Shown here: positions 3,732-58,026 of the stretch, piece by piece
How the letters are laid out: each line of letters opens with the position of its first letter
How positions within the stretch are numbered: position 1 is the stretch's first letter
The notes under the pieces: generated by a model
What the model was told of the DNA's origin: nothing
The model's database searches: none
What the model saw: only the letters and a program-made list of their open reading frames with translations
Translations under genes and position numbers: made by a program
Assembly: GCA_028700625.1 (NCBI GenBank)
Contig: JAQVSI010000002.1
Coordinates: forward strand, 3,276 to 67,275
Direction of reading: 5' to 3'
DNA: 64,000 nucleotides
DNA from: Candidatus Shapirobacteria bacterium
GTDB taxonomy: Bacteria > Patescibacteriota > Microgenomatia > UBA12405

Positions 3732-4214
3732 TTAATCTATTTTACCCTTAAACTCAGCTGTTTGCGACATTTGGCTTTGGTCTGGTTGTTGGGTTTTTCT
3801 TTTATTACCACCCTTATCTTTATGATGCTTATTAGAATTTCCCATCATTTCATCATAGTTAGCAATTTGTTCTTGTCTTTCCACCTCTCTTTGTTTCCTT
3901 AAATTTTCTAAAAAATTTCTTTCTTTTTCTTCCTCTTCTTGTTTCTTTTGATTGGATATTTGTTTAATTTCGCCTTCTATATTTCTTCCAGATATCCGAG
4001 ATCTGACATCTGATATCTCTTTTTGTTTCTTTCTTTCCTCTTCAGCTTTTTTTTGAGCCATTTCTTGTTCACTTAATGGCTTAATATCACCTAAAAGTTC
4101 CTGGGCTGTGATTACAGATTCGGCAATTTTTCCAGTTTCTTCAATCAACTTTTCCACTGTCTCCTGACCTAGTTGTTTCATCCCTTTCCCAAAATCTTTT
4201 ATTATCTGATTCAT
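3732..4214 (-). CDS. hypothetical Lys/Glu-rich coiled-coil protein
   Basis: Low-complexity charged ORF. It contains an ATCTGAN heptamer repeat segment at 3991-4019. Confidence 0.4.
   Translation of the reverse strand: MNQIIKDFGKGMKQLGQETVEKLIEETGKIAESVITAQELLGDIKPLSEQEMAQKKAEEERKKQKEISDVRSRISGRNIEGEIKQISNQKKQEEEEKERNFLENLRKQREVERQEQIANYDEMMGNSNKHHKDKGGNKRKTQQPDQSQMSQTAEFKGKID
3991..4019. repeat. ATCTGAN heptamer repeats
   Basis: GATATCCGAGATCTGACATCTGATATCTC. Confidence 0.5.
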
Positions 4215-4220: not shown

Positions 4221-4844
4221 TTATATCTCCCTCCTTCCATCCATAGCTCGGCTCAAAGTTGCCTGATCAGCATACTCTAAATCTGCTCCCATCGGTAAAC
4301 CACTCCCAATTCTTGAAATTTTTAAATTTTTACCCTGTAAATTTTCTAATTTTTTCTTAATATACAAAGCAGTAGCTTCACCTTCCATAGTCGGATTTGT
4401 CGCCAGGATTACTTCTATTTGATCATTAGAAATTAGAAATTGATTATTTACTCTTTTAATCAATTCATCAATTTTCAAATCATCTGGTCCTATGTGTTCT
4501 AAAGGATTAACCACCCCACCTAAAACATGATAAACACCTTTAAACCCTCCAATATTTTCAATTGCCACCACATCAATTGCTCTTTCAACCACACAGATAA
4601 TTTTTTTATTTCTTTGTGAATCTTCACAAATTGAACAAATTTCTCCTTCACAAACCGAAAAACATTCTTTACAAATCTTTACTTCTTTTTTTATTGCCAA
4701 AAGAGATCTAGCAATTTCCGAAACATAAGACTCTGGGGTATTTATTAAATAAAAAACCAATCTGCTTGCACTCTTCGGTCCAATACCCGGCAATCTTTCA
4801 AAAGCCGAAATTAAATTATTGATACTTTTTGGTAATTCCGCCAT
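4221..4844 (-). CDS. recR: recombination protein RecR
   Basis: C4 zinc finger CKECFSVCEGEICSIC and a Toprim domain. The start was moved to an internal Met (MAELPKS) because the longer ORF overlaps ybaB. Confidence 0.85.
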   Translation of the reverse strand: MAELPKSINNLISAFERLPGIGPKSASRLVFYLINTPESYVSEIARSLLAIKKEVKICKECFSVCEGEICSICEDSQRNKKIICVVERAIDVVAIENIGGFKGVYHVLGGVVNPLEHIGPDDLKIDELIKRVNNQFLISNDQIEVILATNPTMEGEATALYIKKKLENLQGKNLKISRIGSGLPMGADLEYADQATLSRAMDGRREI

Positions 4845-4845
4845 T

Positions 4846-4868
4846 TTGGATATTAGAAATTGGAAATT
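4846..4868. repeat. TTGGAAA heptamer repeats at the ybaB-recR junction
   Basis: TTGGATATTAGAAATTGGAAATT. Confidence 0.4.
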
Positions 4869-5206: not shown

Positions 5207-6752
5207 CAAAGATTTCTTTCGCCACATCATAAATATCTCCACCACCAGATTCACTTTTATTTTCCACAAATTGATCGCTCACATTTTCCATTGGAGTATC
5301 ATTTTTAATGACTAAAGGTTCTTTTTTATTTTTTCCCAAGACACATTCAAAACACAAATCAACTCCAAAAACTTTTGTCATACAGTCTTCTACTATTTTT
5401 CTATTTTTTGCTTCTTCCAATCTGTCTTTATGAAAGGGATAAAAAACTTCTAAAAGTAAGATTTTTCCTTTAATTGAACGTGGTCTAGATGCTCTCAAAA
5501 ACGCTTCTACTGAATGATTATAAGGTTTAATTGTCGTCAATAAATTTCTCCATTTCTCCTTAACTTTTTCAACCTCAATCGAACAATTTTTCATTTGTAC
5601 GGGCGTATTACAATACGCCTCTTCAGCTAAAACCTTCACTTCTTCTGTCTTTTCATCTGAGATCTGAGATCTGAAATCTGAAATATCGGGTTTGATATCT
5701 GAGATCTGAGATCTTTTTTGTCCCACAAACTCAACAACTGCCAATTCTAATGGCAACTGATCTATTTCTACTTCTTTTTCTTGTTTAGATGCTTTAACTA
5801 ATAAGTTTATAAAAAATTCAGATTCACTCAAATTTAAACCATTCTGGTTTTCAGAACCCAAACCATAAAAAGATAAAATTTTCTTTTGAAAAAAATTCAT
5901 TAATTTTAATCTAAAACTAGAAAAATCAATTCCCTCTGTTGCCATCTTTTCTAATTTTTCCAAAATTAATTTAATTTCACCTTTATCCAAATCTTTATCG
6001 AAATCTTCTTCACTATAATTACCACTCTTATCCAAATAAAACTTAAAAACTTCCTCTGACTTTAATTTTTTTCCCAACTGCAAATATAATTCATTAAAAT
6101 TTCTCTGCAAATTTCTAAAACTACCATCACTCTTTTCTATAATAAAATCAACTGCCTCCTTAGCAATTTCAATTCCTTCTCCATCAATAATTTTTTTAAG
6201 TGAATTATTTAAAGCATCTTTTCCACCTTTTCTAAAGTCAACCCTTACTAACCTCGATAATACTGTTTCAGGGATTTTTTCGGCATCAGTAGTGCACAAA
6301 ACAAAAATTGTATGTTTAGGCGGTTCCTCAATTAACTTTAGAAGTGCATTAAAAGCATCTTTAGTTAACATATGAACTTCGTCAATAATAAAAACTTTTT
6401 TAGTTAACTTACTTGGTAATAAATAAGCTTTATCTTTTAAACTTCGAACATCTTCAATTCCTCGGTTTGATGCTCCATCCATTTCAATAACATCCATCGC
6501 TGAACCTTTTAATATTTCTTTACAATTATCACATTTTCCACAAGGCTCGCCATCTTTCAAATCATTACAATTAGTTGCTCTGGCCAAAATTCTGGCTGCT
6601 GATGTTTTTCCCGATCCCTTTGGTCCAGAAAATAAAAAAGATTGAGGTACATCTTTAGCTGATAAAAATTTCTTCAAACTAATTGCCACATCGGTCAAAT
6701 CCAAATCTGAAAACTTAATTGGTCTATATTTTAAGTGAAAAACTGACATCAA
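5202..6752 (-). CDS. dnaX: DNA polymerase III subunit tau/gamma
   Basis: Walker A GPKGSGKTS and the Zn module CGKCDNCKEI. It carries in-frame heptamer repeats at 5655-5714 and a degenerate palindromic element at 5597-5619. Confidence 0.85.
   Translation of the reverse strand: MMSVFHLKYRPIKFSDLDLTDVAISLKKFLSAKDVPQSFLFSGPKGSGKTSAARILARATNCNDLKDGEPCGKCDNCKEILKGSAMDVIEMDGASNRGIEDVRSLKDKAYLLPSKLTKKVFIIDEVHMLTKDAFNALLKLIEEPPKHTIFVLCTTDAEKIPETVLSRLVRVDFRKGGKDALNNSLKKIIDGEGIEIAKEAVDFIIEKSDGSFRNLQRNFNELYLQLGKKLKSEEVFKFYLDKSGNYSEEDFDKDLDKGEIKLILEKLEKMATEGIDFSSFRLKLMNFFQKKILSFYGLGSENQNGLNLSESEFFINLLVKASKQEKEVEIDQLPLELAVVEFVGQKRSQISDIKPDISDFRSQISDEKTEEVKVLAEEAYCNTPVQMKNCSIEVEKVKEKWRNLLTTIKPYNHSVEAFLRASRPRSIKGKILLLEVFYPFHKDRLEEAKNRKIVEDCMTKVFGVDLCFECVLGKNKKEPLVIKNDTPMENVSDQFVENKSESGGGDIYDVAKEIFG
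5597..5619. repeat. palindromic element P1, a degenerate copy inside dnaX
   Basis: GTACGGGCGTATTACAATACGCC. It encodes AYCNTPVQ in the dnaX reading frame. Confidence 0.5.
5655..5714. repeat. ATCTGAG heptamer tandem repeats, two blocks inside dnaX
   Basis: CATCTGAGATCTGAGATCTGAAATCTGAAAT ... ATATCTGAGATCTGAGATCT. Confidence 0.6.
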
Positions 6753-7167: not shown

Positions 7168-7195
7168 GTACGGGCGTATTGCAATACGCCCCTAC
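7168..7195. repeat. palindromic element P2, the intergenic copy
   Basis: GTACGGGCGTATTGCAATACGCCCCTAC, with a perfect 8-bp stem GGGCGTAT/ATACGCCC. Confidence 0.6.
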
Positions 7196-9876: not shown

Positions 9877-12015
9877 CTAATTAAGACTTTTTGCAGAAAA
9901 TTGTTTTTCTAAAGAATTCTTATAAATTTGTAAATCTAGTCCGTTAACATAACAATCTCCATTTAAGTCAGATTTCAAAACTCCATTAGTAGCAACTTCT
10001 TTATTCCATTCATTCTTCATTGCGGCAAAATCAAAACCATCTATAGAACCATTTCCATCAATGTCTCCATTCAAAATTGACCAATTATATAAAGTTAATG
10101 TTTTGTCAACCAAATCAGATACTTTTATTAAACTAGTATCCCCAGAAACAAATCCACCAGTTTGTTCATTACGACCATAAAGAGTTGTTAATAATTTAAG
10201 GTGGCTATCTTTAATATTGGTTACATATATATAAATTTTATCTGTTAATAAGTAAGTATTATCAAGTTCAAAATCTTTAATTTCATAAACTTGATAACCA
10301 TCATTGACTACTTTAACCGTTGAAAATTTATCATCAACTTTAGTTGCTATCATTTCCCTTGTAATCCCCGCATCTCCAGCCTTGGAAACGTTTACTTTTA
10401 ATTTCATTTGTTGATCTAAACACTTATCGTTAGCACCAGCAAAAACACCAAGCATTGAAACTTGCATTGTTAATTTTGGTGCAGTATAACCAGGATCACA
10501 ATCAACTGTTTCAGTCGCTGGATGAGTTACACCACCTGTACAAGTTCCAGTTTTAGTCCAAGTTTTAGTCTGTTTACCAGTACTAGGACAAGTTGTTGGA
10601 GATAAAGCTGAAGTCCAATTAGCTGTAGTACAAGCAATATCACATCCAGTAACGGCACCACAAAGAGCTTCACTGGAGAAAGTGGTAGTTCCATTGGCTG
10701 CGGTTGAACTTGCACTGTTTTTAGTACATACCCAATTTCCAGTTGAAGTATTACAAGAACCTTTTGTAAAGATAGTATAAGTTGTTTGATTACATCCAGT
10801 GTAATCTTCACATTTTTCTTTATCAGAAAAAGTGGTACTTCCATTAGGCGCTGTTGTACTTGTACTACTAGTACATGAATATTTACCTGTCGAAGTATTA
10901 CAAGAACCTTTTGTGTATATGGTATAAGTTGGAATTGAATTTGGTACACAACAACGATAAGTTGTATCTGTTGGTTTACTCATACATAAACCTTTTTCAA
11001 TTTTTCCAGTTCCCCCATTACAAGAACCACCAACAGTTGATGTTTCCCAAACTTTACATACGCCATCTTTATCAGTACATGGTTTATCTAAAACTGTTGC
11101 CGGAGCACAACATTTAACATCACTACCACTACTCATACAATAATTAGTTAAATAAGTTTTACCATTAGTACAAGCAGTAGTTGTTTTTTGACAAACACCA
11201 CCCGCGTTTACACATTTAGAATCTTGAACAATCACAGTACTGCCACTAGCTACACAAGCACCATTAGAACAAGTTTTCCCGGATGCATAACAAGCTTCTT
11301 TAGAATGCCATCCAAAATTAGTTCCACCCGTAGAGATATTAGGATAGCTACCACATACATATAAAACTGTTTTTGATTGACTAGTAGTATTACCACACTT
11401 AACATCACCACTATTACCAACAACACTCACTGTTTCAGAATCAGCAGCGCAAGTTGAAGGAGTTGAAGTTGAATTTGAATTTGAAGAAGTTGAGGTTGAG
11501 CAAACACCATTCAATAGAAGATTGTCGCAAGTACATTTATAATCCAAAAAAAGAGGATTATTGTCTTTTTTTAGCTTACAACTATAGCCGACATCGCAAC
11601 CAACATTTTTATAACCATTACAATTTGAATCCGAAGAAACACATTGATTTCCAATACAATTACCAGAAGCACACATCTTATCCATAATACAAAGAGCTTT
11701 TATTGTTCTTGGTGTACCAACAAACTCAGGAAAATCTGAATAAGGAACATTCTTCCAGTCACTTTCAGAATACTCACCAGACTTAATTAGGTCATCCCTA
11801 CCAAGACTTGAGAATGTTACTGTTGAATTAGGAACACCCAAAAGTGGAAATGCTTTACTCCTATTTTCTTGACTCTTTTTAACCAAATTAGTGGTTAAGG
11901 GCAAAGCTACTGCTAAAACCAACATAACAACCATAACTACAATTTGGGAAATACCTTTTTGTTTGTTCATTTTATATAAAAATCTTATAGAAAAGTAAAA
12001 CACTTTTGAAAACAA
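9877..12015 (-). CDS. large Cys-rich repeat surface protein with a C-terminal dockerin
   Basis: 712 aa with a signal/TM start and tandem ~45-aa repeats (YTI[YF]TKGSCNTSTG...). The C-terminus has two DxDxNGxIDxxD and DLNGDCYVNGLD calcium-loop repeats. Confidence 0.5.
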   Translation of the reverse strand: MFSKVFYFSIRFLYKMNKQKGISQIVVMVVMLVLAVALPLTTNLVKKSQENRSKAFPLLGVPNSTVTFSSLGRDDLIKSGEYSESDWKNVPYSDFPEFVGTPRTIKALCIMDKMCASGNCIGNQCVSSDSNCNGYKNVGCDVGYSCKLKKDNNPLFLDYKCTCDNLLLNGVCSTSTSSNSNSTSTPSTCAADSETVSVVGNSGDVKCGNTTSQSKTVLYVCGSYPNISTGGTNFGWHSKEACYASGKTCSNGACVASGSTVIVQDSKCVNAGGVCQKTTTACTNGKTYLTNYCMSSGSDVKCCAPATVLDKPCTDKDGVCKVWETSTVGGSCNGGTGKIEKGLCMSKPTDTTYRCCVPNSIPTYTIYTKGSCNTSTGKYSCTSSTSTTAPNGSTTFSDKEKCEDYTGCNQTTYTIFTKGSCNTSTGNWVCTKNSASSTAANGTTTFSSEALCGAVTGCDIACTTANWTSALSPTTCPSTGKQTKTWTKTGTCTGGVTHPATETVDCDPGYTAPKLTMQVSMLGVFAGANDKCLDQQMKLKVNVSKAGDAGITREMIATKVDDKFSTVKVVNDGYQVYEIKDFELDNTYLLTDKIYIYVTNIKDSHLKLLTTLYGRNEQTGGFVSGDTSLIKVSDLVDKTLTLYNWSILNGDIDGNGSIDGFDFAAMKNEWNKEVATNGVLKSDLNGDCYVNGLDLQIYKNSLEKQFSAKSLN

Positions 12016-12060: not shown

Positions 12061-12690
12061 TTACTTAGTTAGCCTGCAACAAACTGGAGTTTTTCCAGAA
12101 CAAGTAGTTCCATTAATCACTGATCCACCCTTACCTATAGTACAAGTTCTCACATTACCAACACAAACACCACCTTTAGCAATACAACTTGGTTTTGGGG
12201 TTGGTGTTGCCTTGGCTAATTTACAACACTTAATATCATTAGCTCCATAAGTTCCTAAACATAACTTTGAATTCGATCCAATTACAGTTCCTCTAGAACC
12301 ATCAAAACTACAAGTCGAGCCATCTTTTACAGTAGTATAGTTACCCACTCGAGTACAAACCCCACCTGCATTTACACAACCCTCAGCCCCTGGTAATTTA
12401 CCAGTATCAGGCAAACAACAATAATAAGAAGTATTTTTACATAATCCTTTTACGGCCATTCCATTATATCCAGTGGATGTACTACAACTACCAGTTTGAT
12501 TATACGCATTACAAGTACCATATAATAATTTCCCCGTTAAATCCTTACTACTACAAGCCGCCACTCCTGCCGCACTACTTCTAGTATCCTGTCTATTTTG
12601 AATCACAGTTAAAAGAGCCAATCCAGCAATTGAAATAATTAACAAAATTAACAAAAGTTTTAGATTGCTTTTCTTTTTTATTTGTTTCAT
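12061..12690 (-). CDS. Cys-rich secreted protein, paralogous to modules of the 9877-12015 protein
   Basis: Signal peptide and a shared CVNAGGVC / YYCCLPDTGK motif. Confidence 0.4.
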   Translation of the reverse strand: MKQIKKKSNLKLLLILLIISIAGLALLTVIQNRQDTRSSAAGVAACSSKDLTGKLLYGTCNAYNQTGSCSTSTGYNGMAVKGLCKNTSYYCCLPDTGKLPGAEGCVNAGGVCTRVGNYTTVKDGSTCSFDGSRGTVIGSNSKLCLGTYGANDIKCCKLAKATPTPKPSCIAKGGVCVGNVRTCTIGKGGSVINGTTCSGKTPVCCRLTK

Positions 12691-12709: not shown

Positions 12710-13780
12710 TTATTTTTTCAAAACTCGACCAATGTCTCCCACTGTAATCAACACAATCAAACTTAAAAGCAAAATCATTCCAATATTGTTTACTACCATT
12801 TCTAATTTTTGATTGGCTTTTTTCTTAAAAATCATTTCATAGAAAACAAAAATTATTCGACCTCCATCCAAAGCCGGAAAAGGTAAAACATTAACTATTG
12901 CCAAATTTACAGAAACTATTCCAAAAAAATGAACAACTGCTAAAAATCCTTGATTTTTATTAATTGCACTAGTTGCTTCAAACATTCCAATTGGACCACT
13001 AACATCTTTTGGAACATTCCCAGTAAATAATCCTCCAATCATTTTAAAAACACCATTTCCAATAATTTTTCCCCAAAAATAAGCTTCTTTAAAACCAGCC
13101 CCAATTCCTTCATAAAATCGATACCAAGGCACTTTAATCATCTCTGTGTTTGAAATAGCAATTCCAATTGCCCCTTCCCCTTCTGGTGGATTTGCTCTTA
13201 CTTCCACCTCTTTTTGTACGGGCGTATCGCCATACGCCCCTACAATCTCTAATTTGATATTTTCCCCTTTATATTTCCCAACCTCTGTTGTTAGTTCATC
13301 TGGTTTTTTAATTTCTTTATCTTGTACTTTCACGATAATGTCTTCTTCTTTCAATCCTGCTTTTTCAGCTGGTGAATTTTTTGCAATTCCAATAATCTTA
13401 ACTTTGTTTGTTTCGGTCGGCACTCCTAAAATTGTATAAACCACACTAAAAATTAAAATTGCCAAGACCAAATTCATGAACACTCCACCCAACACAATTA
13501 TTAACTTTTGCCATGGCTTTTTATGATTAAAAGAATTCCCTCCCTTACCATCACCATCTTCTCCATATAATTTACAAAATCCACCAATTGGTAACCAATT
13601 TATACTATATATAGTATCCCCAATTTTTTTACCAATTATTCTTGGAGGTAAACCCAAACCAAATTCTTCAACTCTGACTCCATTTTTTCTAGCTGCAAAA
13701 AAATGACCAAGTTCATGAACTAAAACTAAAATTGATAGCGCAACTATAAAAATTATCAAATCCATTCTTGATTTTAACAA
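12710..13780 (-). CDS. rseP: RIP metalloprotease RseP (M50 site-2 protease with PDZ)
   Basis: HELGHF zinc motif, a PDZ segment, and LDGG close to the C-terminus. The palindromic element at 13216-13243 lies in frame inside it. Confidence 0.8.
   Translation of the reverse strand: MLKSRMDLIIFIVALSILVLVHELGHFFAARKNGVRVEEFGLGLPPRIIGKKIGDTIYSINWLPIGGFCKLYGEDGDGKGGNSFNHKKPWQKLIIVLGGVFMNLVLAILIFSVVYTILGVPTETNKVKIIGIAKNSPAEKAGLKEEDIIVKVQDKEIKKPDELTTEVGKYKGENIKLEIVGAYGDTPVQKEVEVRANPPEGEGAIGIAISNTEMIKVPWYRFYEGIGAGFKEAYFWGKIIGNGVFKMIGGLFTGNVPKDVSGPIGMFEATSAINKNQGFLAVVHFFGIVSVNLAIVNVLPFPALDGGRIIFVFYEMIFKKKANQKLEMVVNNIGMILLLSLIVLITVGDIGRVLKK
13216..13243. repeat. palindromic element P3, inside rseP
   Basis: GTACGGGCGTATCGCCATACGCCCCTAC. 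It encodes GAYGDTPVQ in frame. Confidence 0.6.
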
Positions 13781-13794
13781 AACAAAACTTAAAA

Positions 13795-13872
13795 TTCGAA
13801 GTTATAATTTTTTGTGTCCTTGAACGTGCGACACACATTCACCAGACATAAAAAATTTGTAACGAGAATTTT
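13795..13872. repeat. intergenic ~80-95-nt repeat, family X, copy 1
   Basis: TTCGAAGTTATAATTTTTTGTG..GAACGTGCGACACACATTCACCAGACATAAAAAATTTGTAACGAGAATTTT. Confidence 0.55.
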
Positions 13873-13881
13873 AAGTTTTGT

Positions 13882-14433
13882 TTAACCACGAATTTCCAAT
13901 TCTTTTTTCTTAGCTGTTTCTTCTAATTTTCCAATATAAAGATCTGTAGTTTTTTGTAATTCAGTTTCATCTCTTTTAAATTCATCTTCAGAAACTGATT
14001 TATCTTGTTTAGCTTTTTGCAAATCATTTCTAAAATCTGCCCTAGCATCTCTAATCATTACTCTAGCTCCCTCTAGTTTTCTACCAAGAAGTTTTACATA
14101 ATCTTCTCTTTGTTCTACTGTCAACATTGGTAAACTCATTCTAATAATAGTTCCGTCAACAGAAGGTGTCATTCCTACATTTGCCACCACAATTCCATTG
14201 CTGATTTCTCTAATTAAAGCTTGATCCCATGGTTCAAAAGTTAGACTTCGAACATCAGGAACTCCAATTGAACCTAATTCAATCAATTTCATTTTTTGGC
14301 CACCATAAACCGTCACCACCACATTTTCAATCAATCCCGGAGTTGCTCTTCCTGTTCTAATAGAGGCAATATCGTTAGTAAACAGAGCTACTATTTTATC
14401 CATTCTGTTTTTTACATCTGCAAAATTTATCAT
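13882..14433 (-). CDS. frr: ribosome recycling factor
   Basis: 183 aa matching RRF throughout. Confidence 0.9.
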   Translation of the reverse strand: MINFADVKNRMDKIVALFTNDIASIRTGRATPGLIENVVVTVYGGQKMKLIELGSIGVPDVRSLTFEPWDQALIREISNGIVVANVGMTPSVDGTIIRMSLPMLTVEQREDYVKLLGRKLEGARVMIRDARADFRNDLQKAKQDKSVSEDEFKRDETELQKTTDLYIGKLEETAKKKELEIRG

Positions 14434-14450: not shown

Positions 14451-14510
14451 AAAAAAGCTCCCCTTCATCAAGGGGAGCTGGCGAGTAAAACGAGTCTGAG
14501 GAGTTTAAAT
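14451..14510. repeat. hairpin family, copy B
   Basis: Between tsf and frr. The hairpin GCTCCCCTTCATCAAGGGGAGC is followed by a T-run and then TATAAT on the minus strand. Confidence 0.5.
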
Positions 14511-14985: not shown

Positions 14986-15036
14986 GTCCTCCCTTCTTCA
15001 AGGGAGGATGTCCGTAAAACGGACAGGTGGGTTTAA
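14986..15036. repeat. hairpin family, copy C
   Basis: Between rpsB and tsf: TCCTCCCTTCTTCAAGGGAGGA plus GTCCGTAAAACGGAC. Confidence 0.5.
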
Positions 15037-24132: not shown

Positions 24133-26136
24133 ATGAAGTCTTTTATTAAGTCTGTTCGTTTTCTGTTTTTGACCCTCTTTTTTGTCACTCCTTTAATTTT
24201 TACCCAGTCCAATTCCGAGCTTTTCGAATTACCAAAAATGTATTTTGTATATCTTTTAACCATTTTAATAACTACTTTTCATCTAGTTAATGTCTTTAAA
24301 AAACAAGCTCCTCTATTTAAAAAAACTTTTCTAGACATCCCTTTGCTTTTATTTCTAATTTCTCAAATAATTTCCACTATTTATTCAATCGATCCTCATA
24401 CTTCCTTTTTTGGTTATTACTCCAGACTTAATGGCGGTCTTTTATCGTTAATCTGTTATGCCCTTTTGTACTGGATTCTTTCGATTTACATCAATTCTAA
24501 TTTCAAAAAACAAATCATTAATTTTTCATTACTTTCCGGTTTTTTAATTTCTATTTATGCTATTGCCCAGCATTTTGGTATCGATAAAAATTTATGGGTT
24601 CAAGACGTTCAATCTCGAGTTTTTTCCACCCTCGGCCAACCAAATTGGCTCGCCGCCTATCTTTGTATCCTACTTCCATTTTCTATTTACAAATTTTTTC
24701 AATCAATCAATACGTACGGGCGTATTGCCATACGCCCCTATCTTTATTTATTTTTAACATTAATTTTTTATATTTCTATTCTTTTCACCAAATCCAAATC
24801 TGGTATCATTGCCTGCCTCATTTCCCTTTTTGTATACTTCACCTTCTCTTTCTTAAAAAACAAAAATTCTCGAAAATTGTTAATTCTTAATTATTCATTA
24901 TTAATTATTCTTTCGCTTTTAATCGCTAATCCAATCAAAGATCAACTTTTCCCTCCTAAATTGGAAATTGGAAATTCGACATTAGAAATTAATAACAAAT
25001 TAAACATTACCCCCTCAGGTGATATCCGAAAAATTGTTTGGACTGGCGCCGTTGATCTTTGGAAAAAATTTCCTATTTTTGGCACTGGTGTTGAAACTTT
25101 TGCGTATTCCTATTATTGGACTCGTCCTGTTAAACATAATTTAACCTCTGAATGGGATTTTCTCTACAACAAAGCCCATAACGAATATATTAATTATCTA
25201 GCCACCACCGGTGCCATCGGTCTAATCACTTATTCAATTTTAATATTTACTTTTCTTTTTTCTTTAATCAAAAATTTAATTAGAAATTGGAAATTAGAAA
25301 TTGAAAATTTATCTCTAGTTATTTTAACTTCATATATTTCTATTCTCATTACCAATGCCGCCGGCTTCTCTGTAGTTTCCACTTCACTTTTCTTCTTCCT
25401 CCTCCCCGCTCTTTTAATTCCCGATCAAAATACTAAAGTAGAGACGTTGCATGCAACGTCTCTACACAAATTCTTAATTATTCCTCTAATTTTAATTAGT
25501 TTTATCTTCACTAAAAGAATAATCTTCTTTTATCTAGCCGACATTGCCTACAGCCAAGCCGAAACTTATGATTCTAGAAATAATTATAAAACTGCTCTTT
25601 CTTATCTTCAAATAAGTCATCAGTTCAACCCCAAAGAACCCTTATATACTGACAAACTAGCTACTATTTACTCAAAAATTGCTTTAAATAGTGAAAAACA
25701 AGAAGATATCGACAAATCTATAAATTATTCTAATCTAACTATTAAAATTTCTCCTAGTAATATTAATTTTTGGAAAGAACGAGCTCAAGTTTATCTTTAT
25801 CTTTCAGGAGTTGATTCAAAATATTTTTCCGAAGCCATTATTTCTCTCGATAAAGCTAGTCTTTTAGCCCCAACCGACGCCAAAATTTATTATTCAATTG
25901 GTCAATTCCTAGAAACTGCCAGTCTTCAAAAAGAAGCTATTCCTTATTATCAAAAAGCCATTGAATTAAAACCAAATTACGATTATGCCTATTTTGCTCT
26001 GGGCAAAATTTATTTATCTCAAAAAGAAAATATATTAGCTAAAAAAAATCTACAAAAAGCCGTTGATTATTCTTATCCCACCAACTCCGAAGCCGAAAGA
26101 CTACTTAAAACCATTTTCCCTGCCACCTCTTTATAA
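24133..26136 (+). CDS. O-antigen ligase / Wzy-like polytopic membrane protein with C-terminal TPR repeats
   Basis: About 12 TM helices followed by TPR repeats (AYFALGKIYL). It contains the palindromic element at 24714-24741 and heptamer repeats at 24958-24990 and 25279-25310. Confidence 0.5.
   Translation: MKSFIKSVRFLFLTLFFVTPLIFTQSNSELFELPKMYFVYLLTILITTFHLVNVFKKQAPLFKKTFLDIPLLLFLISQIISTIYSIDPHTSFFGYYSRLNGGLLSLICYALLYWILSIYINSNFKKQIINFSLLSGFLISIYAIAQHFGIDKNLWVQDVQSRVFSTLGQPNWLAAYLCILLPFSIYKFFQSINTYGRIAIRPYLYLFLTLIFYISILFTKSKSGIIACLISLFVYFTFSFLKNKNSRKLLILNYSLLIILSLLIANPIKDQLFPPKLEIGNSTLEINNKLNITPSGDIRKIVWTGAVDLWKKFPIFGTGVETFAYSYYWTRPVKHNLTSEWDFLYNKAHNEYINYLATTGAIGLITYSILIFTFLFSLIKNLIRNWKLEIENLSLVILTSYISILITNAAGFSVVSTSLFFFLLPALLIPDQNTKVETLHATSLHKFLIIPLILISFIFTKRIIFFYLADIAYSQAETYDSRNNYKTALSYLQISHQFNPKEPLYTDKLATIYSKIALNSEKQEDIDKSINYSNLTIKISPSNINFWKERAQVYLYLSGVDSKYFSEAIISLDKASLLAPTDAKIYYSIGQFLETASLQKEAIPYYQKAIELKPNYDYAYFALGKIYLSQKENILAKKNLQKAVDYSYPTNSEAERLLKTIFPATSL
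24714..24741. repeat. palindromic element P4, inside the O-antigen-ligase-like gene
   Basis: GTACGGGCGTATTGCCATACGCCCCTAT. It encodes TYGRIAIRPY in frame. Confidence 0.6.
24958..24990. repeat. TTGGAAA heptamer repeats
   Basis: AAATTGGAAATTGGAAATTCGACATTAGAAATT. Confidence 0.45.
25279..25310. repeat. TTGGAAA / TTAGAAA heptamer repeats
   Basis: TTAGAAATTGGAAATTAGAAATTGAAAATTT. Confidence 0.45.
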
Positions 26137-26660: not shown

Positions 26661-27515
26661 TTGATAAACTATCTCATGACTAACATTATTTTCTTTGGTT
26701 CATCCGAACATTCTGTCATCATTCTTAAAAAACTTCTTGAAATTAAAGATTTTAATGTTTTGGCCGTTTTTACTAAACCAGACAAAGCCACTGGTCGCGC
26801 TCAAGAAATCACTAAAAATCCAGTTTCCTCTTTCGCCAACCAAAACAACCTCAAACTTATCCAAATTGAAGAATTTACTCAAGAAGTCAAATCTGAGATC
26901 CGAGATCTTAAATCTGATATCGCTTTATGTGTCGCTTTCGGTCCTCCTTATTTTGATCAAGAAATGATTGCTATTCCCAAATTTAAAATCGTTAACATCC
27001 ATCCATCACCATTACCAAAATATCGCGGTGCCACCCCCGGCCCTTGGCAAATAATCAATGGCGAAACTAAAAGCGCTGTCACTTTCTTCCAAATCGATGC
27101 TCTGCCCGACCACGGCCCCATTATTGCCCAAATTCCATTTGAAATTAGTTCACAAGAAACCGCCACCAGTTTTTATCAAAAAGCTTTTAATATTGCTTCT
27201 GATAATTTAGAAAATGTTTTAAAGTCTTATATTTCCAACCCAACCAATTTAACCACTCAAAATGATACTCAAAAAACCTATTTTCCAAAATTCAACAAAG
27301 ACAATGCCAAAATTGACTGGAACTGGGACGAAATCAAAATCAATCGCTTTATTCACGCTTTAAACCCTTGGCCAATTGCTTGGACTTTTGTTAACAATCA
27401 ACAAGGTCAAAAATTAAAAATGAAGATGTTTTCCAGAACCTTAGTCCAAATCGAAGGCAAGAAAATCACTCCTTGGTCAGAAATTTCAAAATATTATACT
27501 ATAAATAAATCCTAA
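26661..27515 (+). CDS. fmt: methionyl-tRNA formyltransferase
   Basis: Formyltransferase N-domain with IVNIHPSPLPKYRGATP. It is divergent from def and carries an in-frame heptamer repeat at 26891-26924. Confidence 0.8.
   Translation: MINYLMTNIIFFGSSEHSVIILKKLLEIKDFNVLAVFTKPDKATGRAQEITKNPVSSFANQNNLKLIQIEEFTQEVKSEIRDLKSDIALCVAFGPPYFDQEMIAIPKFKIVNIHPSPLPKYRGATPGPWQIINGETKSAVTFFQIDALPDHGPIIAQIPFEISSQETATSFYQKAFNIASDNLENVLKSYISNPTNLTTQNDTQKTYFPKFNKDNAKIDWNWDEIKINRFIHALNPWPIAWTFVNNQQGQKLKMKMFSRTLVQIEGKKITPWSEISKYYTINKS
26891..26924. repeat. ATCTGAN heptamer repeats inside fmt
   Basis: ATCTGAGATCCGAGATCTTAAATCTGATATCGCT. Confidence 0.5.
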
Positions 27516-30387: not shown

Positions 30388-30463
30388 GCCTGAGTAGCTC
30401 AGTTGGTTAGAGCACCAGTTTTGTAAACTGGTTGTCGTGAGTTCAAATCCCACCTCAGGCTCA
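30388..30463 (+). tRNA. tRNA-Thr (anticodon UGU)
   Basis: A cloverleaf can be drawn by hand: acceptor GCCTGAG/CTCAGGC, anticodon loop TTTGTAA, T-loop GTTCAAATC. Confidence 0.8.
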
Positions 30464-30486
30464 TTTTTTGATAAAATACCAAACGT

Positions 30487-30559
30487 GCCCAGATAGCTCA
30501 GTTGGTAGAGCATCCCCTTGGTAAGGGGAAGGTCTTGGATTCGAGTTCCAATCTGGGCT
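30487..30559 (+). tRNA. tRNA-Thr (anticodon GGU)
   Basis: Acceptor GCCCAGA/TCTGGGC and anticodon loop TTGGTAA. Confidence 0.8.
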
Positions 30560-30593
30560 CAAAGGAGGGCATGCCCTCCGAAGCTTTAGCGAA

Positions 30594-30679
30594 GGAGGGG
30601 TGCTCCGAATGGTAAGGAACTTGTTTTGAAAACAAGCGTCAGCAATGACATGCAGGTTCAACTCCTGTCCCCTCCGCCA
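30594..30679 (+). tRNA. tRNA-Ser (anticodon UGA), type II with a long variable arm
   Basis: Acceptor GGAGGGG/CCCCTCC, anticodon loop TTTGAAA, variable arm GTCAGCAATGACATG, and an encoded CCA. Confidence 0.75.
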
Positions 30680-33242: not shown

Positions 33243-33314
33243 CAGGCCCATGAGGATTCGAACCTCAAATGGAGATTTTGGAGATCCCAGTGATAACCAT
33301 TTCACTATGGGCCT
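33243..33314 (-). tRNA. tRNA-Trp (anticodon CCA)
   Basis: Minus-strand cloverleaf: acceptor AGGCCCA/TGGGCCT, D-stem GTGA/TCAC, anticodon loop CTCCAAA, T-arm TGAGG-TTCGAAT-CCTCA. Confidence 0.7.
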
Positions 33315-33343
33315 AAGTTTGAGATTTAATATTCTACCAAATT

Positions 33344-33754
33344 TTACTTAATTTGGCTTAAATCACCATTAATTATAATTGGACAAAAACCACCTATCTC
33401 ATCTTTTAAAATGCCTTCAGGAATCTGATTATATAAAAATATTTTTTTATTTAATCTAAAAGCATCATACATTTCCAAAAAAGTCGCTCCGCCAATATAA
33501 TTTTTGTAATCATCTTTATCAAAGTTTAAAACCAAAACCGCATCATTTTTACTAACAGAATCAACACTTTTTCTAAGCATTGTTGCTTTCCATTCAGCTC
33601 TTTCTTTTTCTCCTAAAGAACGAAAACTATCCTCAATATCAGTTTTGGGATATGTATTAGGAAAAGTTAATTTATGACCTAATTTTTCCAATTCTTTTTG
33701 AATAGGTGGAATCAAAGGATAAAATCTCTTACTACAAATTATAAAGATTTTCAT
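33344..33754 (-). CDS. hypothetical protein, possibly nucleoside 2-deoxyribosyltransferase-like
   Basis: Starts MKIFIICSKRF. The longer N-terminal extension in the ORF track overlaps tRNA-Ala and was discarded. Confidence 0.35.
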   Translation of the reverse strand: MKIFIICSKRFYPLIPPIQKELEKLGHKLTFPNTYPKTDIEDSFRSLGEKERAEWKATMLRKSVDSVSKNDAVLVLNFDKDDYKNYIGGATFLEMYDAFRLNKKIFLYNQIPEGILKDEIGGFCPIIINGDLSQIK

Positions 33755-33756
33755 AG

Positions 33757-33829
33757 TGGACCCAAGGGGACTCGAACCCCTGACCTTCCCCATGCCATGG
33801 GGACGCGCTACCAACGACGCTATGGGCCC
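33757..33829 (-). tRNA. tRNA-Ala (anticodon GGC)
   Basis: Acceptor GGGCCCA/TGGGTCC with the G3:U70 Ala identity pair, and anticodon loop ATGGCAT. Confidence 0.7.
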
Positions 33830-33880: not shown

Positions 33881-34765
33881 ATGACCAATATAACTAAAGC
33901 CGTCATTGCCGCCGCTGGCCGAGGCACTCGTTTTCTTCCTGTTGTTAAATCTTATCCAAAAGAGCTAGTCCCTATTCTTTCTAAACCTAATATTCAATAT
34001 TTAATCGAAGAAGCCATTGGTGCTGGGATTACAGAAATTGTTATTATCCACAGATTAGGTGAAAATTCAATTGAAAAATATTTCTCTCCAGATCAAGATC
34101 TAGAAAATTATTTAATTCAAAATAATAAACTCGAATATCTCGACAGTTTAAAAAATATATGGTCCAAAGTTAAGCTAACTTTTATTCCTCAACCAGCCAA
34201 TCTTCCTTATGGTAATGGCTCCCCTGTTCTTGCCGCCAAAGAATTCATCGGTACCGACGACTTCGTTTATATGTTTGGCGACGATCTAACTGTCGAGCCT
34301 GTTGCTGGTCAATTTTTATCCAAAATGATCGCCACTTTTGCTCAATACCAACCAGCTTCAGTTATTGCTGTTAAAGATGTTGGTAAAGAAGAAATTTCTC
34401 GTTATGGTTCAGCTCAATATATTGAAGATCCAAATTACCCTCATCGAATCTCTGCGATGCTTGAAAAACTCCCAGCCAATCAAGCCCCATCAACTTTCGG
34501 TCAGGGTGGTCGTTTTGTTATTTCCAATAAGATAATTAGTATTCTAGAAAATCAATCAACCGGTCTTGGTAATGAACTTTGGTTAGCTGATGCTCAAAAC
34601 AACATGGCCAAAAACGATATTGTTCTTACTCAAGCTTTTGAAGGTGAAGAAGATTGGATGACCACCGGCGATCCTCTTCGTTGGCTTGAAGCCAATATTG
34701 CCGTCGCTCTTCAAAACCCTCAATTCAAAGACGATTTAACTCAATTTATTAACAATTTAAAATAA
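33881..34765 (+). CDS. galU: UTP--glucose-1-phosphate uridylyltransferase-like nucleotidyltransferase, paralog 1
   Basis: AAAGRGTRFLP motif. The start was set at MTNITKAV. Confidence 0.7.
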   Translation: MTNITKAVIAAAGRGTRFLPVVKSYPKELVPILSKPNIQYLIEEAIGAGITEIVIIHRLGENSIEKYFSPDQDLENYLIQNNKLEYLDSLKNIWSKVKLTFIPQPANLPYGNGSPVLAAKEFIGTDDFVYMFGDDLTVEPVAGQFLSKMIATFAQYQPASVIAVKDVGKEEISRYGSAQYIEDPNYPHRISAMLEKLPANQAPSTFGQGGRFVISNKIISILENQSTGLGNELWLADAQNNMAKNDIVLTQAFEGEEDWMTTGDPLRWLEANIAVALQNPQFKDDLTQFINNLK

Positions 34766-34773
34766 TTAAAAAA

Positions 34774-34852
34774 TCGAAATCACAATTTTTTGCAATATCG
34801 AACGTGCTACGCACATTCGCCAATTGTAAAAATTTCCGTGATGAGAATTTTT
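34774..34852. repeat. family X, copy 2, lying between the two galU paralogs
   Basis: Same architecture, with compensatory changes in the central hairpin. Confidence 0.55.
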
Positions 34853-34873
34853 AATTAAATTTAAAATAAAAAA

Positions 34874-35749
34874 ATGATTAAAAAAGCTGTAATTGCTGCC
34901 GCTGGAAGAGGAACTCGATTCTTACCAGTCGTCAAGGCCTATCCAAAAGAACTAGTCCCTATTCTTTCTAAACCTAATATTCAATATTTAATCGAAGAAG
35001 CCATTGGTGCTGGTATTACTGATATTGCCATCGTGATTCGCTCTGGTGAAACTAAAATTCAAAACTATTTTTCGGAAGATGTTAATCTAGAAAAATATCT
35101 TCTAGAAAACAACAAAATTGAGTATCTAGACAGCCTTAAATCGATTTGGTCCAAGGCTAAGCTCAGTTTCATCGTTCAACCAGAAAATCTACCCTATGGA
35201 ACTGGTTCCCCTCTTTTAGCCGCCAAAGAATTTGTCGGCTCCGATCCTTTTGTCTATATGTATGGCGATGATCTAACAATTGAACCTAATGCTGGTCAAT
35301 TTTTATCAAAAATGATCGCCACTTTTGAAAAATACCAAGCCAGTGAAGTTATTGCTGTCAAAGATGTCGGCATTGAAGAAATTAACAGATATGGCTCTGC
35401 TCAATACATAAATGATCCAAATTATCCAAACCGAATTTCTGCCATGCTTGAAAAACTACCAGCCTCAGAGGCCCCTTCAACTTTTGCCCAAGGCGGTCGT
35501 TTTGTGGTTACTTCCAAGATTTTTGCCATTTTAGAGCAACAAGGTCTTTCTCGTGACGGCGAACTTTGGTTTTCAGATGCCAGCAATACCCTAGCCAAAA
35601 CAGAAATAGTCCTAACTGAAAGTTTTAGTAAAGACGAAAATTGGATAACCACTGGCGATCCTCTCCGTTGGCTCAAAGCCAATATTACCCTCGCTCTTCA
35701 AGACCCAAACCTAAAAGACAACTTTCTTAAATATCTACAATTCCTTTAA
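34874..35749 (+). CDS. galU: UTP--glucose-1-phosphate uridylyltransferase-like nucleotidyltransferase, paralog 2
   Basis: About 70% identical to the upstream paralog. Same AAAGRGTRFLP motif. Confidence 0.7.
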   Translation: MIKKAVIAAAGRGTRFLPVVKAYPKELVPILSKPNIQYLIEEAIGAGITDIAIVIRSGETKIQNYFSEDVNLEKYLLENNKIEYLDSLKSIWSKAKLSFIVQPENLPYGTGSPLLAAKEFVGSDPFVYMYGDDLTIEPNAGQFLSKMIATFEKYQASEVIAVKDVGIEEINRYGSAQYINDPNYPNRISAMLEKLPASEAPSTFAQGGRFVVTSKIFAILEQQGLSRDGELWFSDASNTLAKTEIVLTESFSKDENWITTGDPLRWLKANITLALQDPNLKDNFLKYLQFL

Positions 35750-35750
35750 C

Positions 35751-35793
35751 TAAAACCCTCCGCCCTTCGGGCACCTCCCTTGACAGGGCGGCT
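35751..35793. repeat. hairpin family, copy F
   Basis: TAAAACCCTCCGCCCTTCGGGCACCTCCCTTGACAGGGCGGCT, immediately after the stop of the second galU paralog. Confidence 0.55.
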
Positions 35794-35907
35794 TACATAT
35801 TAAAAACATATTTTTATATAAAATATTTCTCCCTATAGTTAATTTATTATTGATACTTAGTTTTAAAAACAGCCTTGTTTGTGCCTATTTTTTACTAAAC
35901 TTACTTA

Positions 35908-36107: not shown

Positions 36108-36184
36108 ATCTCCCTTTGACCTAAAGGGAGACTTTATTTTTATAACCCCTCCTTTAAGTCAAAGGAGGGGTAGGGGTGGATTTT
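36108..36184. repeat. dual-hairpin repeat, family Y, copy 1
   Basis: TCTCCCTTTGACCTAAAGGGAGA ... CCCCTCCTTTAAGTCAAAGGAGGGG TAGGGGTGGATTTT. Confidence 0.5.
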
Positions 36185-40929: not shown

Positions 40930-41024
40930 TTCGAAGTCATAATTTTTTGTGGCCTTGCCTGCCCGCCTCTGGAGGGAACGTGCGACGCACATTCACCAGA
41001 CATAAAAAATTGTGACGAGAATTT
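40930..41024. repeat. family X, copy 3, carrying a 25-nt GC-rich insertion
   Basis: Between the convergent 38295-40928 gene and glyA. Confidence 0.55.
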
Positions 41025-41031
41025 ATTAAAA

Positions 41032-42186
41032 TTAAAGATTTTTTATTATCCCTGCAATCTTATTTCCTAATTCTTCAAATTCCTTTTCTTTCCACCCTCT
41101 GGTTGTCATAGCTGGAGTTCCCAGTCTAATTCCCGATGGACTAAAAGGACCAGCTTTGTCATGAGGAATAGTATTGGCATTAACCACAATTCCATTTTCT
41201 TCAAGTTTTACAGCTGCCGCTTTTCCTTTTTCAAATCCCACTTCCACCACCATCAAATGATTTTCAGTTCCAAACACATTTAAACCATTTTTTCTTAATG
41301 AATCAGCCAAAGCTTTTGCATTTTTGATAATTTGAGATGCATAATCCTTAAATTCTTGAGTATCACATTCACCAAAAGCCACTGCTAATGCTGCAATTTG
41401 ATTTTCATGAGGACCACCCTGCAAGCCTGGAAATACTGCCCTGTCAATTTTTTTTGCCAATTCTACATCTTTCTCAAACCCTTTTTTAGTTACCCCAATC
41501 ACTGCACCTCGTGGCCCTCGCAAGCTTTTATGAGTAGTACTAGTAATTATATGGACATATTCATTTGGACTTGGATGAACCCCTCCCACCACTAAACCAG
41601 CAATATGAGAAATATCCGCCACCAACCATGCTCCAACTTTATCAGCAATTTCTCCAAATCTTTTAAAATCTAGAATATAAGGATAAGCAGTAGTTCCTGC
41701 CATTATCATTTTTGGTTTTTCTCTTAAAACCAATTCTTCTAATTTGTCATAATCAATTCGACCATCTGCCTCAACATCATATTGCAAACTTTCAAAAAAT
41801 TTTCCCGAAAAAGTGATTTTTGGATGACCATGAGTTAAATGTCCACCAGCCGAAAGTTTTAAACCACAAATTTTATCCCCTCTTTCCAAAAGTGCCATTT
41901 GCACTGCACTATTAGCCGGACTTCCAGAATAAGATTGAACGTTTAAATGTTCCACTCCTAAAACTTTTTTTCCTCTCTCAATTGCTAAATTTTCAATTTG
42001 ATCCACAAATTCATTTCCCTGATAATATCTTCGACCAGGATACCCCTCGGCATATTTATTGGTCAAACAGCTTCCCAAAGCCATTAAAACCTCATCCGAA
42101 GCAAAATTTTCACTTGGAATTAAATGAATTAAATTTTTCTGTCTTTCTTCTTCTTTTTTAATCAAATCTCTAATTTGTTGATCCAT
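41032..42186 (-). CDS. glyA: serine hydroxymethyltransferase
   Basis: The PLP-lysine region TTHKSLRGPRG, plus GGHLTHG. Confidence 0.9.
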   Translation of the reverse strand: MDQQIRDLIKKEEERQKNLIHLIPSENFASDEVLMALGSCLTNKYAEGYPGRRYYQGNEFVDQIENLAIERGKKVLGVEHLNVQSYSGSPANSAVQMALLERGDKICGLKLSAGGHLTHGHPKITFSGKFFESLQYDVEADGRIDYDKLEELVLREKPKMIMAGTTAYPYILDFKRFGEIADKVGAWLVADISHIAGLVVGGVHPSPNEYVHIITSTTHKSLRGPRGAVIGVTKKGFEKDVELAKKIDRAVFPGLQGGPHENQIAALAVAFGECDTQEFKDYASQIIKNAKALADSLRKNGLNVFGTENHLMVVEVGFEKGKAAAVKLEENGIVVNANTIPHDKAGPFSPSGIRLGTPAMTTRGWKEKEFEELGNKIAGIIKNL

Positions 42187-45642: not shown

Positions 45643-45723
45643 ATTACTCTTGCTCGAAAGTTTTAGAGATCCGACTTTACGGTTGCGGCACAGTCTAGGA
45701 ATTACACCTAGTTCCCTATTAAA

Positions 45724-46176
45724 TTATTTTTTAATTTGTTCGACTGATTTTATAAATAAATAATCTGAAAGTCTATTGAAATATTTTAGTATATCTTTAT
45801 TAATTTTTTGCTGTTTATTCAAAGTAACAATCCTTCTTTCTGCTCTTCTGCAAACAGTCCTTGCCCAATTTAATTCTAAAGATTCTTTTTCTTTAAATTT
45901 TACAAACTTAGTTAATTTATAATCTTTGGAACTTATTTCTTTCTCCATTTTTTCGATTGGAAATTGGAAATTGGAAGTTGGAAATTTAATTCCACACCCC
46001 AATTCTCCCATTATTCTCCCCAAATCATCAATAATTTTTTTATTAACTTTAATTAACTCTAAAACCGCTTGTAATTCATCAATGGTTCCAACAGCCTCAA
46101 GTAATGGATTGTCTTTATCCACTATTTTTCCTAAAAAATAACTTTTACCTTCATCACCTTTTTTTGTTGTTATCAT
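45724..46176 (-). CDS. PduO-type ATP:cob(I)alamin adenosyltransferase
   Basis: TKKGDEGKS...EAVGTIDELQ. Adjacent to the B12-dependent RNR, and carries an in-frame heptamer repeat at 45956-45987. Confidence 0.55.
   Translation of the reverse strand: MITTKKGDEGKSYFLGKIVDKDNPLLEAVGTIDELQAVLELIKVNKKIIDDLGRIMGELGCGIKFPTSNFQFPIEKMEKEISSKDYKLTKFVKFKEKESLELNWARTVCRRAERRIVTLNKQQKINKDILKYFNRLSDYLFIKSVEQIKK
45956..45987. repeat. TTGGAAA heptamer repeats inside the PduO-like gene
   Basis: ATTGGAAATTGGAAATTGGAAGTTGGAAATTT. Confidence 0.5.
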
Positions 46177-49722: not shown

Positions 49723-49775
49723 TAGCCTCCCTGTCAAGGGAGGTGGCGAGTGAAACGAGACGAAGGGTTTTAAAA
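49723..49775. repeat. hairpin family, copy A
   Basis: CCTCCCTGTCAAGGGAGG plus GGCGAGTGAAACGAG, in the divergent promoter region of DUF559 and secE. Confidence 0.5.
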
Positions 49776-57798: not shown

Positions 57799-58026
57799 GT
57801 TTTGTGTTTACCCGCCCGAGGCGTTTTTGAACTCATGTTCAACAACATCACCTCGGGCCTTTTAATAACTAATCTATTTACAAAGCAAAATCTAATTGAT
57901 ACAATAAACCCAATCTAACCGAAGACAGTAGGCATTCAAATAAGTCCCACCGAGGTCAAAACAATTTATTTGTCTTGATTAATACCCTCGCTTCTTCGGC
58001 GAGGTTTTTTTATTTATTAAACCAAT
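57799..58026 (+). promoter_or_regulatory. rplJ (L10) leader with attenuator-like hairpin
   Basis: CCTCGCTTCTTCGGCGAGG plus a T7 run at 57986-58011, preceded by an alternative pairing GCCCGAGG...CCTCGGGC. Confidence 0.4.

Follow-up and report, generated by a model that had tools for sequence, protein, structure and literature searches.

A GTAG-headed hairpin repeat read in frame within rseP of a Candidatus Shapirobacteria bacterium, a probable relative of repetitive extragenic palindromic sequences

The locus considered here lies on a 64-kb stretch of contig JAQVSI010000002.1 (hereafter the window), which belongs to a metagenome-assembled genome of Candidatus Shapirobacteria in the Candidate Phyla Radiation (CPR)/Microgenomates. 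At 12710..13780, the minus strand encodes RseP, an M50 site-2 protease with one PDZ domain, as an open reading frame (ORF) of 356 amino acids counted from the first start, which matches Pfam Peptidase_M50 and PDZ and retains intact HELGH and NxxPxxxLDGG motifs, the latter as NVLPFPALDGG. Within this gene, positions 13216-13243 (plus strand, GTACGGGCGTATCGCCATACGCCCCTAC) form a 28-nucleotide (nt) imperfect palindrome, which reads GTAG-GGGCGTAT-GGCG-ATACGCCC-GTAC on the gene (minus) strand. The stem of GGGCGTAT and ATACGCCC is perfect over 8 base pairs (bp) and closes a 4-nt loop, and it is continued outward by three GTA/TAC pairs (G1-C28, T2-A27 and A3-T26), with G4/G25 as the sole mismatch. 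The palindrome is conspicuous because it contains 64% G+C in a window of only ~31% G+C, the GC skew of which is negative throughout. The predicted RNA folding energy of the hairpin is -21.1 kcal/mol (z = -5.8), and none of 200 shuffled sequences folds equally well.

A preliminary description, made from the letters of the window, had reported that this palindrome encodes GAYGDTPVQ in frame and that its reverse-complement translation matches the ORF-track protein exactly. Both statements are confirmed by the window sequence and the ORF translation, i.e., the ORF at 12710..13780 includes LEIVGAYGDTPVQKEVEVRANPPEGEG, and the codons from V180 to the first base of Q189 (VGAYGDTPVQ) correspond to the hairpin.

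The rseP hairpin is one of five copies of a dispersed repeat, on which repeat finding, a hairpin scan and a covariance model all agree. Run over the 64 kb with filters off, the covariance model returned exactly these five and no further match to E = 10, and a search for the core GGGCGTAT-N4-ATACGCCC with up to three mismatches found four sites in the window vs. none in 100 shuffles. The rseP copy (13216..13243, minus strand), which is assigned to subfamily 1, scores 42.8 bits (E = 2.4e-11). A second subfamily-1 copy with a GTAG head (7168..7195, minus strand, 42.9 bits) is intergenic, and together with an A-run it makes up all of the 34 nt that separate the stop of yqeY (7196) from the start of ybeY (7161). 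A degenerate subfamily-1 copy in the variable linker of dnaX (5597..5624, minus strand, 34.1 bits) has a GAAG head and a 7-bp stem; it encodes EEAYCNTPVQ in the same frame as the rseP copy, which bears out the earlier report of a near-identical peptide from dnaX. The remaining two copies lie in a plus-strand gene for a Wzy_C/TPR membrane protein (24133..26136). One of them, of subfamily 1 (24714..24741, minus strand, 38.8 bits), carries its ATAG head on the minus strand, and the Wzy-like gene translates the tail strand as TYGRIAIRPY. The other (25438..25465, no strand assigned, 36.4 bits) is a perfect 28-nt palindrome, GTAGAGACG-TTGCATGCAA-CGTCTCTAC, which represents a sister subfamily 2 and encodes VETLHATSL.

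All four subfamily-1 copies in the window have the GTAG-type head on the minus strand, and four of the five copies lie within long, conserved ORFs. The copies stand singly and kilobases apart, the sequence flanking them is not conserved from copy to copy, and predicted folding energies of the hairpins range from -12 to -21 kcal/mol, with z as low as -6.6. The TAG of GTAG closes one of the six reading frames of the hairpin, and the other five are open; for this reason, a copy that is in frame and lies in a loop or linker rarely breaks the gene, which explains how copies survive in rseP, dnaX, the Wzy-like gene and, in relatives, cysS. The loci with which the window was compared, i.e., syntenic DNA of relatives, other genomes and viral contigs, are labelled L001, L002 and so on. 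Two of them, from independent Joint Genome Institute assemblies, hold the rseP copy (L152) and the yqeY/ybeY copy (L132), and an assembly artefact is thereby excluded.

Four lines of evidence support the earlier proposal that an inserted DNA element, rather than protein-level conservation, accounts for the shared peptide. First, in an alignment of 36 RseP orthologs (72-99% identical), the hairpin site is the sole strongly length-variable stretch of the PDZ region, and no other part of the protein varies as much in length and sequence; most orthologs lack the peptide, being 3-6 residues shorter there and unrelated in sequence, and a few have ..SPVQKEVEV in common. Second, the same DNA is found between genes at 7168-7195 and, read on the opposite strand in another frame, in the Wzy-like gene (YGRIAIRPY). 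Third, the orthologs with related peptides (L001, L002, L004 and L005) have a variant or decayed palindrome at the same position; a peptide conserved in orthologs that lack the palindrome, which the preliminary description had named as evidence to the contrary, is thus not seen. Fourth, the site falls on a beta-hairpin turn. An AlphaFold model of RseP (mean predicted local distance difference test score, pLDDT, 80.7) places a strand at 174-180, a loop at 181-187 (GAYGDTP) and a strand at 188-193, and in an alignment to the solved Aquifex aeolicus RseP homolog (PDB 9j82), the segment falls on the PDZ-domain turn that reads ...LKILR-NGK-MIEKEL... in that protein. As modelled, the GAYGDTP peptide is the turn joining the last two PDZ beta-strands, not an interdomain linker. 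Thus, the two checks that had been proposed, ortholog alignment and structure mapping, gave a hypervariable site and a loop position, respectively, whereas the original placement between the PDZ segment and the C-terminal half of the protease was wrong, the hairpin lying within the PDZ domain itself.

The coding copies in dnaX and the Wzy-like gene likewise occupy variable linkers or loops, which most DnaX and Wzy orthologs do not have. At the first site in the Wzy-like gene (Wzy site 1), YGR-xxx-RPY is found in 13 of 40 orthologs with free inner residues (IAI, IMI, ATA, GVT, GMT and AAA), whereas the DNA is palindromic in 13 of 15 inner pairs. Because the DNA remains palindromic even though the inner residues vary freely, the constraint is one on the nucleic-acid hairpin and not on the protein, and the peptide itself is probably without function.

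The orthologous sites of relatives are occupied in a patchy manner, and their inner stems differ. At the rseP site, L001 has GGAGGGGCGAGTTACGCCTCGCCTGTACAAAAAGAG at the codon identical to that of the window's GTAGGGGCGTATGGCGATACGCCCGTACAAAAAGAG, i.e., a hairpin with another inner stem (model E = 0.001), which is read as GGASYASPVQ. Decayed palindromes are found there in L002, L004 and L005, and none in L007, L162 or L163, the last two of which are the nearest to the window among the relatives with DNA compared (82-83% RseP identity). The yqeY/ybeY junction is filled in the window and in L006, with another inner stem (ATTCATGAAT) in the latter, and is empty (0-14 nt) in six other genomes. At Wzy site 1, five genomes have a hairpin, each with its own inner sequence. 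In what is a small sample, copies of the same genome share on average 7.9 of the inner 10 nt, vs. 3.9 for copies at the same site in different genomes and 3.8 for unrelated pairs. High sharing is seen among the four window copies and between the two subfamily-1 copies of L131, a locus that also holds two subfamily-2 copies identical across all 28 nt; the pair of copies in L001/L128 shares only 5 of 10 inner bases. Judged from these few sequences, the inner stems point to renewal of copies within a genome, by re-insertion at preferred sites or by conversion, rather than to simple vertical descent.

Counted as independent sites, the Shapirobacteria copies are coding in ~7 cases (dnaX 2, rseP 1, Wzy 3 and cysS 1) and intergenic in ~4. 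Loci of relatives hold 0-4 copies per 12-22 kb, and the window holds five in 64 kb. A metagenome scan with the window-specific variant found 30 stretches, of which the low-GC ones mostly represent the same three sites.

The hairpin class extends far beyond this lineage. A scan of one genome per species with the pattern TAGGGGCG-N10-CGCCCGTAC matched at least 120 genome stretches from many phyla, among the matches listed being Cyanobacteria, Planctomycetota, Chloroflexota, Acidobacteriota, Omnitrophota, Kiritimatiellae, Bacteroidota, Gemmatimonadota, Patescibacteria and others. Three features show that these matches did not arise by chance. First, the base preceding TAG, which the pattern leaves unspecified, is mostly G in the cross-phylum set. 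Second, within the inner 10 nt, which the pattern also leaves free, Watson-Crick pairing at the three outer pairs holds for 92-96% of 73 distinct sequences and draws on all four pair types, vs. 30-41% in permuted sequences. Third, in an alignment of 47 sequences (A2), 97.3% of the cells are paired and 92 cells are changed on both sides, values that are reached by none of 500 shuffles.

Both subfamilies are also common on predicted phage contigs of IMG/VR (L164-L299 and beyond), where they occur in 56 and 116 stretches, with up to 4 copies per 11 kb. These copies show the same inner palindromy and are mostly located at the ends of portal, head, tail and tape-measure genes. Neither tblastn nor a hidden Markov model (HMM) found a RAYT-like ORF, i.e., one resembling REP-associated tyrosine transposases (REP, repetitive extragenic palindromic), on the hairpin-bearing phage contigs. 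When the ORFs within ~1 kb of hairpins were clustered, the genomes yielded generic families only, and the viral contigs yielded phage structural genes; an association of the hairpin with four-helix-bundle genes of the 23S intervening-sequence type is not supported by this clustering. Separately, regular tandem arrays of the hairpin were observed in Candidatus Ribeiella (L020 5449-5802, period 109 nt), in L124 (3719-3980, 47 nt) and in Capnocytophaga canis (L032 4198-4349, 62-63 nt).

The window and all compared loci were searched for RAYT genes by tblastn and by an HMM built from four RAYT-like ORFs, and such ORFs were located in four bacterial loci only, i.e., L010, L108, L123 and L161. The four have in common an N-terminal RSIRLxGYDY, the HUH motif MPNH(I/F/V)H and a tyrosine in RNYYE. 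Among NCBIfam models, they match NF047646 (REP-associated tyrosine transposase) best, and Pfam Y1_Tnp is matched by one of them. A hairpin lies within 150 nt of the ORF in L108, L123 and L161, and that of L161 is of the window's own stem type, GGGCGTAT..ATACGCCC. Hairpin copies are also found inside the ORF in L108 and L123, and in L010 the sole copy is inside the ORF. These in-frame copies are read as GGSRTAPT (L108 3933-4499), VRAQHVAPL (L123 2669-3595) and VRATHASPL (L010 1041-1946), and they account for the lower scores of the ORFs against curated RAYT models. A gene present at most once per genome would be expected in far fewer than four of the ~150 short stretches, which were chosen only for a hairpin.

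In general form, the repeat is the 28-nt sequence 5'-GTAG-GGGCG-N3-loop4-N3'-CGCCC-(G/C)TAC-3', which closely resembles published REPs. These have been assigned to GTAG- and CGTC-tagged superfamilies found in eight phyla, with families of fewer than 20 to thousands of copies (Di Nocera 2013, PMC3733652). Published rules for REPs ask for a fully paired stem of 7-20 bp, three or more of whose first four bases are G/C, a loop of 2-5 nt, and a GTAG or GTGG at a distance of 0-2 nt 5' of the hairpin foot (Quentin 2018, PMC6006769), and the rseP hairpin conforms to all of them, with GTAG (13243-13240) 0 nt from the foot of an 8-bp paired stem that starts with GGGC and closes a 4-nt loop. Like GTAG REPs (Nunvar 2010, PMC2817692; PMC3733652; PMC6006769), the repeat has a 5' GTAG directly before a GC-rich 8-bp stem and a 4-nt loop, falls within 20-40 nt in length, is dispersed, with five copies in the window, and forms subfamilies with complementary stem changes. 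In addition, the same hairpin class flanks RAYT-like genes in other phyla. REPs that lie entirely within genes and are translated in frame have been reported for both GTAG and CGTC types, notably in replication and repair genes, and it has been argued that they are tolerated in flexible linkers or loops (Di Nocera 2013, PMC3733652). We found no paper on REPs in CPR bacteria or on these exact sequences, and the supplementary files of Di Nocera 2013 contain no GTAGGGG or GTAGAGACG strings, the published GTAG-1 to GTAG-24 families having been compared through these strings alone.

We also note several differences between this repeat and classical GTAG REPs. First, REPs are as a rule species-specific, whereas this repeat keeps its outer 9 nt from one phylum to another. 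Second, GTAG is mirrored by a 3' (G/C)TAC and is largely paired, which results in a near-perfect 28-nt palindrome, many copies of which are headed on both strands. Third, the Shapirobacteria copies are mostly in genes (7 of ~11 independent sites).

Rickettsia palindromic elements (RPE), reportedly described by Ogata and co-workers in 2000, are the classical case of in-frame palindromic repeats. The repeat described here is similar in that palindromic repeats of a small AT-rich genome are translated in frame at surface loops of housekeeping genes and leave the protein intact; insertion in surface-exposed parts is seen in the RseP, DnaX and Wzy alignments and in the RseP structure. However, RPE-1 elements are ~100-150 bp long and belong to other sequence families, whereas the unit here is 28 nt. 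RPE-4 and RPE-6 have been treated as CGTC REPs (PMC3733652). In contrast to these two, the tag here is GTAG, and the host is a CPR bacterium rather than an alphaproteobacterium. A further parallel is offered by the GC clusters of yeast mitochondria, short GC-rich palindromic hairpins of very AT-rich genomes, which are likewise dispersed and at times lie in coding sequence; these are organellar, belong to other sequence families, lack a GTAG head, and have a different or unknown mobility mechanism.

Other classes of element fit less well. Miniature inverted-repeat transposable elements (MITEs), e.g., Correia elements, are likewise small non-autonomous repeats near or inside genes, but they are 50-500 bp long and have terminal inverted repeats around a non-palindromic core and target-site duplications, none of which is seen here; the whole unit is one hairpin. 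An intrinsic terminator was rejected, as there is no U-run, and an A-run follows the hairpin on the gene strand, with a T-run before it on the other strand; a terminator scan does not call the hairpin, though it calls the nearby tsf terminator. A clustered regularly interspaced short palindromic repeat (CRISPR) does not fit single copies kilobases apart with no regular array, and no Rfam match to a known RNA family overlaps any copy. The hairpin is best filed among the GTAG-type REP-like repeats already known, as a new member whose membership is incomplete; the phylum is new for them, and the location of its copies, mainly within genes, is unusual.

Taken together, these observations lead us to propose, as the probable explanation, that the rseP palindrome is one copy of a REP-like hairpin repeat, short, dispersed and headed by GTAG, that is translated through and whose copies are renewed by a RAYT or by conversion. 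That the hairpin is repeated, folds strongly, combines a conserved outer sequence with a covarying inner stem, and sits in a variable surface turn of RseP is plain from the data above. By analogy with other GTAG REPs, copies may be made or renewed on single-stranded DNA by a RAYT (HUH/Y1) recognising GTAG plus the hairpin; alternatively, gene conversion between copies may renew them. Either process would explain why the inner stem is shared within a genome and not at the same site between genomes. Selection would then purge copies that are out of frame or at structurally important places, and where intergenic DNA is scarce, this would leave mainly in-frame loop insertions.

Several observations weigh against this explanation. 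The GTAG tag of published REPs is described as unpaired (Di Nocera 2013, PMC3733652), whereas GTA pairs with the 3' TAC in the rseP copy, and the tag is fully paired (GTAG with CTAC) in the CTAC-ended copies (L108 and L131 8428) and in subfamily 2. In contrast to classical REPs, the majority of copies lie within genes. The window and ~230 kb of related Shapirobacteria DNA gave no RAYT-like gene by tblastn or HMM, and in this respect the repeat would differ from GTAG REP/RAYT systems. The two nearest relatives compared, L162 and L163, have no hairpin copy in 39 kb of syntenic sequence, the element being absent from all three syntenic sites covered (rseP, yqeY/ybeY and dnaX). The same rseP codon is occupied in three lineages (the window; L001, L002 and L004; L005) and not in closer relatives, a distribution for which extra assumptions are needed whether one supposes a single old insertion or random new ones. 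Finally, no clean pair of empty and filled sites with defined ends or a target duplication could be reconstructed: the junctions were not clean in L002, L004, L005, L007, L162 or L163, with which insertion ends were compared, and no target-site duplication is visible at the yqeY/ybeY, rseP or Wzy sites.

The alternative that survives best, although we regard it as unlikely, is that the hairpins are host cis-acting signals under selection, either as RNA elements with a role in processing, in stability or in the pausing of translation, or as DNA sites bound by a conserved protein, so that their coding location would be functional. It would account for the retention of the hairpin through changes on both sides at the same site across species, for the outer sequence conserved over phyla and phages, for the position of the phage copies at gene ends in structural operons, and for the single chromosomal orientation of the four subfamily-1 copies in the window. 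However, four of four in one orientation corresponds only to p ~0.125, and presence is patchy, as the three sites without copies in L162/L163 and the decayed rseP copies of L002, L004 and L005 illustrate. Moreover, the host genes are unrelated to one another, the copies always sit in their most tolerant loops, and the lack of a U-tract and of an Rfam family argues against a terminator or a known RNA.

A second alternative, that the hairpins are recognition or target sites in a phage-host conflict, read by a nuclease, a methylase or a phage-borne homing function and acquired from phages, seems to us distinctly improbable. The abundance of both subfamilies on predicted viral contigs and the paired CGTCTC/GAGACG motifs within subfamily 2 are what it would lead one to expect, but neither a nuclease nor any other recurrent neighbour was found, save the RAYT-like genes in four bacterial loci, and a fixed recognition sequence would be hard to reconcile with an inner stem that varies. 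The Shapirobacteria copies, moreover, lie outside prophage, in regions of conserved housekeeping synteny.

Still less probable is a local origin at each site by template-switch (quasi-palindrome) mutation, in which case the hairpins would not be copies of one element at all. A self-templating hairpin could maintain the complementarity of its arms and generate new inner stems, and as a means of maintenance such a mechanism is possible; as an origin it is contradicted by the identical 9-nt outer sequence on both arms at unrelated sites in different genomes, phyla and phages, which makes independent origin impossible. Finally, the reading of GAYGDTPVQ as a conserved RseP/DnaX protein motif with an incidental palindrome, to which the ..SPVQKEVEV of a few orthologs lends some appearance, is effectively refuted by the length-variable ortholog alignments, in which the sharing of the peptide goes with that of the palindrome, and by the intergenic and opposite-strand copies.

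A further and more speculative extension of the REP-like explanation, which we think doubtful, is that the family persists in reduced CPR genomes mostly inside essential genes, with no resident RAYT, and that the copies at each site are overwritten by the current inner-stem variant of the genome. If true, this would imply an undescribed mechanism of hairpin-targeted copy correction or re-insertion, possibly supplied in trans by phages, which carry many copies, or else a conserved host factor reading the GTAGGGGCG hairpin in bacteria of many phyla.

Several other features of the window were recorded. Short tandem repeats of the GAGATCTGA type and the TTGGAAATT type are found at 5659-5697, 3991-4029 and 26895-26933 and at 24959-25002, 25277-25321, 4836-4868 and 45940-45998, and they include the dnaX linker (peptide RSQISDIKPDISDFRSQISD) and the Wzy-like gene (NWKLEIENL), both of which also bear hairpins. 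A third GC-rich hairpin family, CCTCCC..TTGACA/GTCAAGGGAGG, occurs at 14456-14479, 14987-15008, 36145-36171, 49726-49743 and 61652-61675, often with TGGCGAG or a T-run after it, together with a longer repeat at 35734-35819 / 49252-49337; the copy at 14456, to which the scan was confined, is terminator-like. Several Wzy orthologs have a sequence resembling this third family, read as CPTCPVKGRW, at the site of the window's GTAGAGACG palindrome. A repeat of ~100 nt with a 39-nt internal inverted repeat has three copies (13780-13883, ~40935-41040 and ~34760-34870), one of which fills the frr-rseP gap, a gap that is ~20 nt in most syntenic relatives (L001-L003 and L006); it has no Rfam match and could be a MITE-like element, a small RNA or a leader.

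Immediately downstream of rseP, the minus strand encodes two Cys-rich, low-complexity secreted proteins (9877-12015 and 12061-12690) with repeated C-x-C and KCC, and the syntenic genes of relatives show faint dockerin/cohesin matches. The segment 33896-35724, a tandem duplication with a period of 987 nt and 74-86% identity, appears to hold two genes that are paralogs. Matches to Rfam that exceed the gathering score are an AdoCbl-II riboswitch (45656-45731, minus strand) and a ribosomal protein L10 leader (57901-58019, plus strand), and five tRNAs lie at 30388-30676 and 33243-33829.

A REP-like insertion would account for the odd, poorly conserved loop in RseP, an otherwise well-conserved protease. 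It also carries a warning for annotation, i.e., short GC-rich palindromes in AT-rich CPR genomes create lineage-specific inserts (VGAY..TPVQ, YGR...RPY and VET....SL) that are not protein motifs. Intragenic REPs have already been described, and the phenomenon is known in principle; the repeat reported here would extend GTAG-type REP-like repeats to the CPR, where intergenic space is small and the survivors lie mainly in frame in loops and linkers. For REP/RAYT biology, it adds a hairpin class whose outer sequence is conserved over many phyla and which is frequently found on phage contigs, and the specificity of inner stems to the genome, even at shared sites, may serve as a testable handle on how REPs are renewed.

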